Shown here: positions 11,819 through 15,952 of the stretch, one piece after another | Layout: each line of letters starts with the position of its first letter | How positions within the stretch are numbered: position 1 is the stretch's first letter | Source of the DNA: Escherichia coli | Lineage (GTDB): Bacteria > Pseudomonadota > Gammaproteobacteria > Enterobacterales > Enterobacteriaceae | Length of the DNA stretch: 64,000 bases | Assembly: GCF_016026235.1 (NCBI RefSeq) | Contig: NZ_CP065613.1 | Strand: one strand, 5' to 3' | The notes under the pieces: model-generated | What the model saw: the letters and a program-made list of their open reading frames with translations, nothing else | What the model was told of the DNA's origin: nothing | Database searches by the model: none | Made by a program: the position numbers and the translations under genes

Positions 11819-11908
11819 GTCACTCACTCTTTTTTGAATATCCATCCCTGGGGGGCTTTTATCGTCTTTGCTTTACCGCCAGGGCGTCGGCCCCAAGTAT
11901 AAAGCAGA

Positions 11909-11944
11909 TAAAAACAAAAACACCATTGCGCAGGCAATGGTGTT
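11909..11944 (-). terminator. Rho-independent terminator downstream of sra
   Basis: On the minus strand: stem AACACCATTGC, loop CTGC, stem GCAATGGTGTT, followed by TTTGTTTTT. Confidence 0.55.
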
Positions 11945-11974
11945 TAATCGTCATTGAGGACTGATGGTTATGAA

Positions 11975-12112
11975 TTACTTTTCAGCGGGGCGTTTTCTGC
12001 CGGTTGGGTTATTTACTACGCTGGATTTGTCACCTTCGGTAACTATTTTGCGCTGGTTAGAAATTTTATGGTCCAGTCCAAGAATATGACGTGCCTGACG
12101 GTTCGATTTCAT
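11975..12112 (-). CDS. sra: Stationary-phase-induced ribosome-associated protein (45 aa)
   Basis: Minus-strand translation [45 protein letters not shown]. Absent from the ORF track because it is under 60 aa. Confidence 0.85.
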
Positions 12113-12213
12113 TTTAACTCCTCAATCCTGTAGCTAGTTTTAAGGACAACATCGCCGTAGCGAAGAAACACGTGCTAAACCCCTAAATTAGGTTGCCGAT
12201 CAAGCATAGCACC

Positions 12214-12429
12214 TTAAAGCGTAGGGTGCTGGCCACTGACCACATAATTGATCGTTTGCTGGTAGATATCACTGAGGATGTCGTTATCAGAAGCTTCCAC
12301 CCATTTGGTCAGCTCCATGAGAATGTCATCTTCAGTGACAACACCGTGCTGTGCCCGAAGGCCTTGCTCAATGGCATTAACCAGAGCGGGTTCTGCTGTT
12401 GAATTTTCTGCCTGATAATAAGTAAACAT
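12214..12429 (-). CDS. bdm: Biofilm-dependent modulation protein
   Basis: Start at MFTYYQAENSTAEPALVNAIEQG (71 aa) inside the listed 92-aa ORF. Confidence 0.8.
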   Translation of the reverse strand: MFTYYQAENSTAEPALVNAIEQGLRAQHGVVTEDDILMELTKWVEASDNDILSDIYQQTINYVVSGQHPTL

Positions 12430-12645
12430 AGTGATTCTCCGTGTCTGTGTATTTATGGTGTCTGCTACGGATCGCAGATTTATAAAGCACATTCAGCATG
12501 GCAAATATTTGCCGCTTCGTTGTTAAGATTAGTCCTAGTTGATGATTTTTATATTTTAACTCCATGATATTCATAGGGATTGTGATTGGTATGATCCGAT
12601 TAATATTGATACAATATCTTTTGGGTTATATATTCCCGGTAATCT

Positions 12646-12681
12646 ATTGTGGGAATTTAATTTATTGTGGGAATTTAATTT
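12646..12681. repeat. Perfect tandem duplication, 2 x 18 bp (ATTGTGGGAATTTAATTT)
   Basis: Units at 12646-12663 and 12664-12681 are identical; lies in the bdm-osmC intergenic region about 110 bp upstream of osmC. Confidence 0.9.
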
Positions 12682-12792
12682 AAGTACAGAAGTAATATTT
12701 CTGCCGGATTTTTATTCGGAATATCCTGCTTATCCTCGTGCTGTTTCTCACGTAGTCTATAATTTCCTTTTTAAGCCCACAGGAGAGCAACA

Positions 12793-13224
12793 ATGACAAT
12801 CCATAAGAAAGGTCAGGCACACTGGGAAGGCGATATCAAACGCGGGAAGGGAACAGTATCCACCGAGAGTGGCGTGCTGAACCAACAGCCGTATGGATTT
12901 AACACGCGTTTTGAAGGCGAAAAAGGAACTAACCCTGAAGAACTGATTGGCGCAGCGCATGCCGCATGTTTCTCAATGGCGCTTTCATTAATGCTGGGGG
13001 AAGCGGGATTTACGCCAACATCGATTGATACCACCGCCGATGTGTCGCTGGATAAAGTGGATGCCGGTTTTGCGATTACGAAAATCGCACTGAAGAGTGA
13101 AGTTGCGGTGCCGGGTATTGATGCCTCTACCTTTGACGGCATCATCCAGAAAGCAAAAGCAGGATGCCCGGTTTCTCAGGTACTGAAAGCGGAAATTACG
13201 CTTGATTACCAGTTGAAATCGTAA
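12793..13224 (+). CDS. osmC: Osmotically inducible peroxiredoxin OsmC
   Basis: 143-aa ORF with OsmC/Ohr fold sequence and conserved Cys pair. Confidence 0.92.
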   Translation: MTIHKKGQAHWEGDIKRGKGTVSTESGVLNQQPYGFNTRFEGEKGTNPEELIGAAHAACFSMALSLMLGEAGFTPTSIDTTADVSLDKVDAGFAITKIALKSEVAVPGIDASTFDGIIQKAKAGCPVSQVLKAEITLDYQLKS

Positions 13225-13279
13225 AGCATTGCCGGATGACGCGTCAGGCGCGTGAATGCCTGATGCGTTGTTAGCATCT

Positions 13280-14206
13280 CTACAGCGCCCGCCAGCACCG
13301 GAGCTCACGTCCGTCCTCCCTTATTGTTAATGATTGCCGGACTTCACATCCGTGGGTTGCCAGAGGGCAACGTTCGTAGAAAAAACAGCCTTGCGGCAAC
13401 GTGCGGTTTCCTGGCAGTTCCGTTTTACGTAATGCCCATTCTTCCTCCAGCGGTTTATCAATGGCGGGGAGGGAATCCAGCAATAATCGGGTGTATGGAT
13501 GTGCCGGAGCCGTTAGCACCTGTTGCGCGTCGCCCAGTTCTACAATCTGCCCGAGATACATCACCGCCACCCGATCGCTCATATGACGTATCACCGAGAC
13601 ATTGTGTGAAATCAGCACATAAGTCAGCCCGTGATTTTCCTGTAGCGTTACCAGTAAATTGAGGATCTGCGCCTGCACGGAGATATCCAGCGCCGAGGTT
13701 GGCTCATCAAGCACAATCACGTCAGGCTGCGAAGAGAGTGCTCTGGCAATGGCGATGCGTTGCCGCTGCCCGCCGGAGAACGCATGAGGCAGGCGGTCGA
13801 GATACTCCGGACGAATACCCACCTGCACAGCCAGCTCCTCTGCCAACGCTCACCGCTGTTGTTCACTACTACGCTTAGCTATCCAGAGCGGTTCTGTGAT
13901 GATGCGCCACACCGGTAAGCGCGGATTAAGCGAAGAGAGCGGGTCCTGAAACACCATCTGCATAATGCGTTGTGAGCCTGAACGGATGTACTGCCCGTGG
14001 CTCGGTTGCAGCATGCCCATTAAAAGCTGTGCGAGGGTGCTTTTGCCGCAGCCTGACTCGCCGACGATCCCTAAGGTTTCACCACGGCGGATCTGTAAAT
14101 CAATACCATTAATGGCATGAACATGTTCCGTAGTTTTACCAAGCCAGTTTTTACGGGCCGGGAAATTGATATGGACGTCGCGTAACGTTAATAACGTGTC
14201 AGACAC
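13280..14206 (-). pseudogene. ddpF: Dipeptide ABC transporter ATPase DdpF interrupted by an in-frame TGA (minus-strand codon 119, plus coordinates 13850-13852)
   Basis: The 118-aa ORF (13850-14206, Walker A GESGCGKST) and the 188-aa ORF (13280-13846, LSGGQ and Walker B) are in the same frame, reading ...[18 protein letters not shown].... Total 309 codons equals the 308-aa DdpF I recall plus stop. Confidence 0.7.
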
Positions 14207-15167
14207 TTATGACCTCCTGCTGCGGATACCAACAGGCGCAGCGCTGGTTGTTGTCACCACACGCTGTCAGCGCCGGGACGTTTTCACACTGTGCACCTGC
14301 CGCATAGCAACGATCGCGAAAAGCGCAGCCGTCAGGCAAATGGGTGAGGTTTGGTACCGTCCCTGGAATGGCGGGTAATGGCTGGCGTGGTACTCCATGT
14401 TCTGGTGCGCATTGCAGCAAACCAATGGTATACGGATGCCGGGGATGATGGATAACGTCTGCCGTCACGCCGCTTTCAATTACGCTTCCGGCATACATCA
14501 CGTAAACGCTATCGCACAGTTGCGACACCACGGCCATATCATGGCTGATGAACAGTACCGCAGTTCCACTGGCGCGGGCTTTATGTTTAAGCAAACGCAG
14601 TACCTGCAACTGTACCGTGACGTCCAGCGCCGTAGTCGGTTCGTCGGCAATAATCAATTGCGGCTCGCAGGAAAATGCCAGCGCAATCATAACCCGCTGG
14701 CGCATACCACCTGAAAGCTCAAACGGATAGCGCGACATAACTTCCACGGCATCCGGGATTTGCATCTCTTCCAGCAGGGCAATCGCTTTAGCTCTGGCTT
14801 CCCGACGACTTATTGGTTGATGATGGCGGATTACGTCCATCATCTGAAGACCTATTCGACGTGTCGGATTAAGAGCGGTCATCGGTTCCTGAAAGATCAT
14901 CGCCACTCGTGCGCCGCGCCACTGACGAAGCTGTTTTTCCCGAGCGTTAAGAACATCTTCTCCCAGCAGTGAAATCTGCCCCCGATGTACGCAATAACTG
15001 CCCGTCGGTAGCAGACGCATAATCAGCATTGCGGTGACTGATTTACCTGAGCCGGATTCTCCCACCAGACCGACAATTTCACTGCGGTTAATCTGCAAGG
15101 ACACATTGTTGAGCGCGTGAACATCACCGTTAAAACCGGGGAAACTCAAATGCAGCTGTTGAATGTT
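14199..15167 (-). CDS. ddpD: Dipeptide ABC transporter ATPase DdpD, 5'-truncated at a deletion junction (native start and RBS missing)
   Basis: ABC ATPase (GESGSGKS, LSGGMRQR). The frame upstream of ...NIQQLHLSFPGF is closed by TAA at 15171-15173 and abuts the dosC fragment. Confidence 0.7.
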   Translation of the reverse strand, partial: NIQQLHLSFPGFNGDVHALNNVSLQINRSEIVGLVGESGSGKSVTAMLIMRLLPTGSYCVHRGQISLLGEDVLNAREKQLRQWRGARVAMIFQEPMTALNPTRRIGLQMMDVIRHHQPISRREARAKAIALLEEMQIPDAVEVMSRYPFELSGGMRQRVMIALAFSCEPQLIIADEPTTALDVTVQLQVLRLLKHKARASGTAVLFISHDMAVVSQLCDSVYVMYAGSVIESGVTADVIHHPRHPYTIGLLQCAPEHGVPRQPLPAIPGTVPNLTHLPDGCAFRDRCYAAGAQCENVPALTACGDNNQRCACWYPQQEVISV

Positions 15168-15952
15168 CTGTTATTCAAATTCCTGGTGTTACGCATGGTT
15201 TGATTGAAAATACCGTCGAAATCCTGAATCAGACGAGAGATATGGCCCACTTCAGCAATGCCGCTGAAATAATGTCGACCTTTATGGTTAAACCACAGGC
15301 CAAAATCAGCCTGGCTTAAAGGCAAACTACTGCCTAAATCAGAATCCAGCAGGATTTTATAGATGATATCTATTTCCCATGAAAGTATTGAGGCTATTTG
15401 CCGTTCTTTTTCTTCTTCGGCGTTTTCCAGTAACGAGAAGATACGATAGTTTTCATCTTCTTTTGAGGCACTACTGTCACTAAAGGTAAACGCGCGGGTC
15501 ATCACTTCCATAGCGATATCAATACTGTTAATCGAGAAATGGTAGACCTGAAGTTTTTCTGCGGCAGAATAATCCGAAGAGAAGATTACCGGATAGAGGA
15601 TCTTTTTCAGCACCCGAAACCCCATCTCGACAATTTCTACCGGAATTCCTATGCGGGCATGCACTTCCGCGACGGTATGCTGGATTTGTATTAGCCTTTC
15701 GACATCGTCAACCTGGGCAGAAAGCACGTTAATAATCCAGCGTTCCATCGCACTCTTCAACTGCCGCTCAACTTGTTCATTACTCAAGAATTCTTCGGCA
15801 TGCGGGTCGATGCGGACAATTCGATAAAACTCAATACTCAGATAATGAGCATGCGCAACGGCAATTTCCGCGGCTTTAGCACGAATGGGCGGATCTGCCT
15901 GTTCGACAAGCCCGGTCCACTCATCTTTCATTCTTTTAAAATACATCTCCAT
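15146..15952 (-). pseudogene. dosC: Diguanylate cyclase DosC, 3'-truncated: globin sensor and middle domain only, GGDEF domain absent
   Basis: MEMYFKRMKDEWTGLVEQ... matches DosC through ...NTRNLNNR, then reads TFNSCI-stop (268 aa versus about 460 expected). Confidence 0.7.

Follow-up and report, generated by a model that had tools for sequence, protein, structure and literature searches.

An 18-bp unit, ATTGTGGGAATTTAATTT, occurs twice in perfect tandem in the divergent spacer between the stress genes bdm and osmC in the 64,000-nt stretch of Escherichia coli DNA analysed here (hereafter the window). The event is best read as an ordinary microhomology or slippage duplication that survives as a rare, probably near-neutral allele, and we place the probability of this reading at roughly 0.6. 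The two-copy allele is already present in public genomes, though apparently undescribed; no earlier description of it was found in the literature. In itself the duplication matters little: it adds another short slippage duplication to those seen in intergenic DNA under weak constraint. The intergenic regions of K-12 and strain 2014C-3011, which differ by exactly 18 bp, form a natural isogenic pair, and this pair could be useful for asking whether the distal spacer has a part in H-NS repression of osmC and in any coupling of the bdm and osmC promoters.

The duplicated unit and its setting

Direct reading of the sequence places the two copies head-to-tail at 12646-12681 with no base between them, in the local order CCCGGTAATCT ATTGTGGGAATTTAATTT ATTGTGGGAATTTAATTT AAGTACAG. 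Tandem Repeats Finder (TRF) reports the repeat at 12640-12682 (period 18, 2.4 copies, 96% matches), and the additional 0.4 copy is due to the likeness of the upstream TAATCT to the unit end TAATTT. When up to three mismatches are permitted, the 18-mer is matched in the 64-kb window by the two tandem copies and by no third sequence, against 0.10 matches expected from shuffles, and the chance expectation for perfect 18+18 tandem pairs in 64 kb is about 1e-6. The unit is 78% AT. The junction between the copies, AATTT/ATTGTG, is the sole sequence absent from single-copy genomes, and AATTTAATTTATTGTGGG can serve as a two-copy k-mer for the allele. The initial annotation of this DNA had placed a perfect tandem duplication of 18 bp between bdm and osmC, some 110 bp before the start of the latter. 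Both statements hold, as the copies are identical and adjacent by direct reading, TRF and 18-mer search alike, and the downstream end of the repeat lies 111 bp upstream of the osmC ATG at 12793.

The gene order around the repeat, taken from open reading frames (ORFs) and the RefSeq annotation of matching genomes, is maeA-sra-bdm followed by osmC-ddpF, with osmC on the plus strand and the other four genes on the minus strand. The divergent bdm-osmC spacer measures 363 bp in the window, compared with 345 bp without the duplication. Its features are collected in Table 1.

Table 1. Features of the bdm-osmC region in the window, with mean pairwise identity among eight Escherichia lineages where calculated.
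Feature	Position	Strand	Basis	Identity
bdm CDS, 71 aa, divergent from osmC	12214..12429	-	ORF, annotation in matching genomes	
bdm-proximal block	12430-12560			0.95
bdm-direction promoter-like hexamers TTGCCA ... TATAAA	12479..12504	-	sequence; predicted in PMC3946193	
Predicted RcsB box TAAGATTAGTCCTA upstream of bdm	12524..12537	.	0 mismatches to consensus; conserved across Escherichia	
Central spacer	12561-12645			0.68
Putative sigma-70 site TTGATA-17-TATATT, osmC direction	12606..12634	+	consensus scan 10/12; predicted in PMC3946193	
Left breakpoint context TAATCTA(T)	12640..12647	.	register analysis; 6/7 vs TAATTTA at right breakpoint	
Copy 1 of the 18-bp unit ATTGTGGGAATTTAATTT	12646..12663	.	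sequence, TRF, exact-match search	
Copy 2 of the 18-bp unit	12664..12681	.	sequence, TRF, exact-match search	
18-bp unit (18 columns, 8 lineages)				0.84
Spacer after unit	12682-12711			0.63
osmC-proximal block	12712-12792			0.94
RcsB-box-like TCGGAATATCCTGC, presumed overlapping RcsB/NhaR activator site	12716..12729	+	2 mismatches to consensus; conserved osmC-proximal block	
CTATAAT, presumed -10 of proximal sigma-S promoter osmCp2	12757..12763	+	sequence; invariant in all Escherichia lineages compared	
osmC CDS, 143 aa peroxiredoxin OsmC	12793..13224	+	ORF list, RefSeq annotation of matching genomes	

Candidate RcsB boxes were sought with the consensus TN(G/A)GAN4TC(T/C)NA (PMC7913699), up to two mismatches being allowed. 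At this threshold no box occurs within 12615-12715, and the nearest boxes are those at 12524-12537 and 12716-12729; the 18-bp unit and the junction were likewise rejected as RcsB boxes, with no consensus match at up to two mismatches. Upstream of bdm, a gene activated by RcsB, the window carries a G-to-A SNP at 12537 by which the K-12 sequence TAAGATTAGTCCTG, with one mismatch, becomes TAAGATTAGTCCTA, a perfect match to the consensus. Among the aligned strains, this A is common to the window and TUM9757 only. The box on the osmC side is presumably the one that serves osmCp1 activation, as reportedly described by Davalos-Garcia 2001 and Sturny 2003. In the latter study, the NhaR and RcsB sites reportedly overlap and lie near the -35 of the distal promoter osmCp1.

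Two overlapping osmC promoters have been described, of which osmCp2 is RpoS-dependent (PMC7285182). Constitutive promoters have also been predicted in the spacer, namely TTGCCA-15-TATAAA toward bdm and TTGATA-17-TATATT toward osmC (PMC3946193), and the spacing of the former, given as 15 in that report, is 14 nt by our count. The -10 of the predicted distal promoter toward osmC (12606-12634) ends 12 bp before the repeat. If this site is active, its transcription start would be near 12641, 5 nt before the repeat.

The pattern of identity across the spacer (Table 1) places the insertion in its weakly constrained middle, between two constrained modules. Within this middle, the unit appears as a modestly conserved island (0.84, compared with 0.63-0.68 for the spacer around it) and may represent a real protein-binding element, the doubling of which would then matter. 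Inspection of the unit by eye for CRP, IHF, Fis and Lrp sites gave weak partial matches only, the best of which was Lrp-like (10/15).

Occurrence among Escherichia genomes

When the spacer was searched for with a 401-nt query, a match was found in 5,409 of 5,426 complete E. coli genomes. The match is about 382 nt long in K-12 MG1655 and in the large majority of genomes, and 400-401 nt long in a small set. The belief expressed in the initial annotation that the reference has a single copy proved correct: MG1655, which was checked as a reference that might itself have carried two copies, is single-copy, and is one of 5,374 such genomes among the 5,409 matched (about 99.4%). With a 48-nt junction-specific query, which is unable to seed on a single-copy genome, the two-copy allele was found at 100% identity in exactly 35 of the 5,426 complete genomes (0.65%), and in each the junction is chromosomal. 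No three-copy allele is present in these 5,426 genomes, because every junction match covers at least 46 of the 48 nt. Human, cattle, pig and deer hosts, surface water and food are all represented among the carriers, as are several countries and continents.

The single-copy state is found in all phylogroups sampled, namely A (K-12), B1, B2 (ABU 83972) and E (O157). Other Escherichia lineages were retrieved via a degenerate osmC-start pattern, and E. whittamii, Escherichia sp. E1V33, MOD1-EC7003, E69 and SCPM-O-B-8794 have a single copy as well. The 18-bp unit is not recognisable in E. albertii or Salmonella, and the junction was not found in species-representative genomes or metagenome contigs.

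Origin and spread of the two-copy allele

When one 18-bp duplication is added to K-12 MG1655, the 2014C-3011 allele is obtained base for base over 400 nt, and the bdm-osmC region of 2014C-3011 is identical to that of K-12 except for these 18 bp. Three equivalent 18-bp registers of the K-12 duplication yield the observed allele, which corresponds to 2 bp of exact microhomology (TA). The right breakpoint, TAATTTA, consists of the unit end and the next base, and together with the left breakpoint context it forms an imperfect repeat, TAAT(C/T)TA, in which the exact homology is short (2 bp). Slippage with 2 bp of exact microhomology is plausible as the mechanism. Judging from the breakpoints, the duplication would have arisen on a K-12-type intergenic haplotype when a nascent end in TAATTTA re-paired with the upstream TAATCTA during replication and 18 nt were re-copied. 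We infer the near-neutrality of the allele, the slippage mechanism and the identities of the promoter elements from sequence comparison.

Microhomology-mediated tandem duplications (MTDs) form between microhomology pairs, only rarely where these are short and AT-rich, and they revert about 100 times faster than they form (PMC8639346). The bdm-osmC duplication resembles MTDs in its perfect head-to-tail arrangement, in the identity of the variant with the ancestor plus an exact duplication and in the expectation of reversal by slippage, and the short homology at its breakpoints is compatible with such an event. It differs from the yeast alleles of that study, which formed between pairs of 5-8 bp, in having 2 bp of exact microhomology (6/7 with one mismatch), and, unlike those gene-inactivating frameshifts, it is intergenic.

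The history of the allele was examined by comparing the variable sites of 18 strains over 11900-14325. In these strains, every two-copy allele lies on the K-12-like upstream intergenic haplotype and never on the O103/O121/RM9131/O157 haplotype, and the osmC-ddpF flank of the carriers comes in at least five haplotypes. The subgroup formed by the window, EC2641 and FDAARGOS_943 has O121/RM9131-type sequence from about 12700 on and is a mosaic, and TUM9757 combines a window-type spacer with a K-12-like right flank. The duplication and a SNP some 85 bp upstream of it are incompatible in a four-gamete test. When the 18-bp gap is discounted in a 5.7 kb comparison, the carriers are no nearer to the window than are single-copy B1 strains. 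EC2641 and FDAARGOS_943 are 99.9% identical to the window over 9500-15166; over 40000-47000, the best among the matches listed are other strains, at 98.5-99.1% identity, so that none of the listed genomes matches the window throughout.

These observations fit either a single origin or a small number of origins with later recombination and possibly reversion, or recurrent gain of the second copy. The short length and AT-richness of the microhomology favour a rare origin with recombination. The two-copy allele would accordingly persist as a rare natural variant that recombination has transferred to several flanking haplotypes, and its persistence on many backgrounds despite the high reversion expected could hint at weak selection.

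The spacer also varies in other ways. In addition to the duplication, the window allele differs from K-12 by a 1-bp T-run indel and substitutions at 12701-12709, by an A at 12686 and by the G-to-A change in the bdm RcsB box. The A at 12686 is private to the window, EC2641, FDAARGOS_943 and TUM9757. At 12701-12709, directly upstream of the osmC activator box, the window group reads TTTCTGCCGGATTTTT and K-12 reads TTTTCGCCGGATTTT, the T-run of the former being 1 bp longer. Single-copy RM9131 has this variant too, which indicates a recombination breakpoint adjoining the repeat. The central spacer (12561-12645) occurs in E. coli as two sharply distinct haplotypes, one K-12-like and the other O157/O103/O121/RM9131/B2-like, with about 20 differences in about 80 bp, and the flanking promoter modules are nearly invariant. 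In FDAARGOS_943, which is among the strains nearest to the window at this locus, an IS1A insertion disrupts maeA next to sra (equivalent to about 10950-11900 of the window); the window is without it.

Effect on the osmC and bdm promoters

The repeat sits between two inferred modules. One comprises the bdm promoter and the associated RcsB box (12479-12537), the other the RcsB/NhaR-type box of osmC and the -10 that follows it (12716-12763). The repeat lies 34 bp upstream of the 12716-12729 box, 76 bp upstream of TATAAT (12758-12763) and roughly 110 bp away from the RcsB box of bdm. The spacing inside each inferred module is unaltered, and the RcsB-type boxes and -10 elements are intact. The duplication does not fall inside the inferred core osmC promoter elements, as the block 12712-12792 is intact and the sequence is identical to K-12 from 12710 on. 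Moreover, a perfect tandem duplication preserves both flank contexts, so that sites within the left flank plus unit, or within the unit plus right flank, survive.

What the duplication adds is 18 bp, or 1.7 helical turns (about 257 degrees), between the upstream DNA and the osmC module, together with a doubled AT-rich element and one novel junction sequence. Compared with K-12, a distal element some 80-115 bp before the osmC start sites is present in one additional copy, and the centres of the RcsB-type boxes, which are 174 bp (16.6 turns) apart in the single-copy arrangement, are separated by 192 bp (18.3 turns). The suggestion in the initial annotation that promoter spacing could be altered is therefore right for the distal elements (the AT-rich spacer, the predicted 12606-12634 promoter and the bdm control region), which are shifted from the osmC module, and wrong for the inferred -35/-10 and activator-promoter spacing, which is kept. 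Because the inferred modules keep their internal spacing and both flank contexts are preserved, the functional outcome would most likely be no effect or a small quantitative one. The creation of an intrinsic DNA bend was considered and rejected, since a wedge-model curvature calculation gave no novel bend and the existing one at about 12707-12715 is merely displaced.

Alternative explanations

The main rival reading is a modest quantitative regulatory effect, in which the doubled AT-rich element and the rotation of about 257 degrees would alter the geometry of an H-NS/Lrp filament or bridge, or the phasing of the promoter modules, and hence the silencing of osmCp1, osmCp2 and perhaps bdm, an outcome that we consider unlikely although several lines of evidence point toward it. 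The bdm-osmC spacer is bound by RpoD holoenzyme and H-NS in genomic SELEX (Shimada et al., PMC3946193), H-NS represses both osmC promoters by a mechanism that is unexplained and Lrp acts there too (PMC7285182), and osmC belongs to the genes in which the H-NS motif is matched between -300 and +100 (PMC2094087). In addition, the unit is AT-rich and better conserved than its surroundings, the distance between the RcsB-type boxes changes by 1.7 turns, and at the junction the two-copy allele gains a sequence that the single-copy allele does not have, ACAATAAATT (12659-12668, minus strand), with 8/10 positions matching the high-affinity H-NS motif tCGATAAATT (PMC2094087). However, an 8/10 match to a 10-mer is weak in AT-rich DNA, the wedge model predicts unchanged intrinsic curvature, and the spacer tolerates many substitutions and indels among lineages, which makes tight geometry unlikely. 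In Sturny 2003, activation by NhaR and RcsB also reportedly needs no more than short sequences immediately before the -35. A more far-reaching form of the proposal, in which the 18-bp element would be an H-NS or Lrp binding or nucleation site and its doubling, with the 1.7-turn shift, would measurably retune osmC and/or bdm silencing and stress induction in a minority of A/B1-type E. coli, reversibly by slippage, is improbable. An effect on the osmC message is very improbable. It would require the predicted distal sigma-70 promoter to fire, which would put the repeat within a long osmC leader, between about +5 and +40, where the second copy could alter translation or mRNA stability, for instance if UUGUGGG of the repeat were to pair with CCCACAG beside the Shine-Dalgarno. 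The promoter-like site does score 10/12 and is the same one predicted by Shimada et al. (PMC3946193), and the ViennaRNA MFE structure of the two-copy long leader sets copy-1 UUGUGGG opposite CCCACAG. Against this, the consensus scan found as many promoter-like sites as occur in shuffled sequence (2, with 2.2 expected), and the predicted unpaired probability of the Shine-Dalgarno is 0.29 with one copy and 0.34 with two. The unit variants ATGGT, GTGGT and GTGGA in other lineages are uncompensated in CCCACAGG, which is invariant, so that covariation is lacking, and no Rfam family lies over the region; covariance models gave no match over the repeat and two sub-threshold matches elsewhere, both with an E-value >0.2. 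The anti-Shine-Dalgarno pairing of UUGUGGG with CCCACAG was rejected as unsupported, given the barely altered accessibility and the lack of covariation across lineages.

Phase-variable contingency loci include repeat tracts in the promoter spacers of Neisseria and Haemophilus genes. Like these, the bdm-osmC duplication is a tandem repeat in promoter-containing intergenic DNA, the copy number of which could change by slippage; unlike them, it has two copies and two allelic states, does not lie between a -35 and a -10, and is stable among siblings. That it acts as a recurrent reversible copy-number switch, with frequent gain and loss of the unit and heritable reversible expression states, is a remote prospect, even though the four-gamete conflict with the nearby SNP and the variety of flank haplotypes fit repeated gain and loss and a perfect 18-bp tandem repeat should revert readily (PMC8639346). 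Recombination accounts equally well for the haplotype mosaic, and short AT-rich microhomology belongs to the class least prone to duplication (PMC8639346). Only the one-copy and two-copy states were seen in the complete genomes, and siblings and re-assemblies are concordant (d1-58 twice, MLI023K1/K2, RM13745/RM13752 and three SMN strains). The repeat also lies outside any -35/-10 spacer or coding region, beyond the -10 of the distal promoter predicted toward osmC, and its copy number sets no -35/-10 spacing or reading frame. A sequencing or assembly artefact in the window might be suspected from two further private small rearrangements there, a 64-bp tandem duplication and a deletion junction. 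The chance of this is negligible, as 35 independent complete genomes, produced in different laboratories and on different platforms, share the identical junction and the closest of them are 99.8-99.9% identical to the window across the region, and an artefact is excluded because these genomes include two independent d1-58 assemblies and sibling isolates. An ordinary slippage duplication with little or no consequence is thus the reading that we prefer.

Other rearrangements in the window

At the deletion junction 15166/15167, ddpD (14199 to about 15166), minus its first 19 or so nucleotides, is fused to an internal point of dosC, and ddpC, ddpB, ddpA, ddpX, dosP and the 3' part of dosC are consequently missing. 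The truncated dosC ORF (15146-15952) retains the N-terminal 268 aa only, with the Protoglobin and DosC_2nd domains, and is followed downstream by yddW-like, gadC-like and gadB genes. None of the 5,426 complete genomes covers 80% or more of a 181-nt query across the junction, which makes the deletion private to the window strain. The ddp/dosC region carries a different deletion in ABU 83972, and the ddp operon contains IS5 in other strains.

The 64-bp tandem duplication is perfect (2 x 64 bp, TRF score 256) and lies at 51907-52034, at the 5' end of an autotransporter gene of the ECSE_1600 family with an ESPR signal peptide (ORF 49887-51917, minus strand). It probably disrupts the 5' end of this gene, because 64 is not a multiple of 3. 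A 341-nt query across the locus spans 277 nt, the single-copy length, in every full-length match listed, the best included (11 of 12 rows sampled across the spread of matches). Finally, TRF detects an imperfect 20-bp tandem repeat at 2771-2809, with 1.9 copies, 89% matches and 5% indels.
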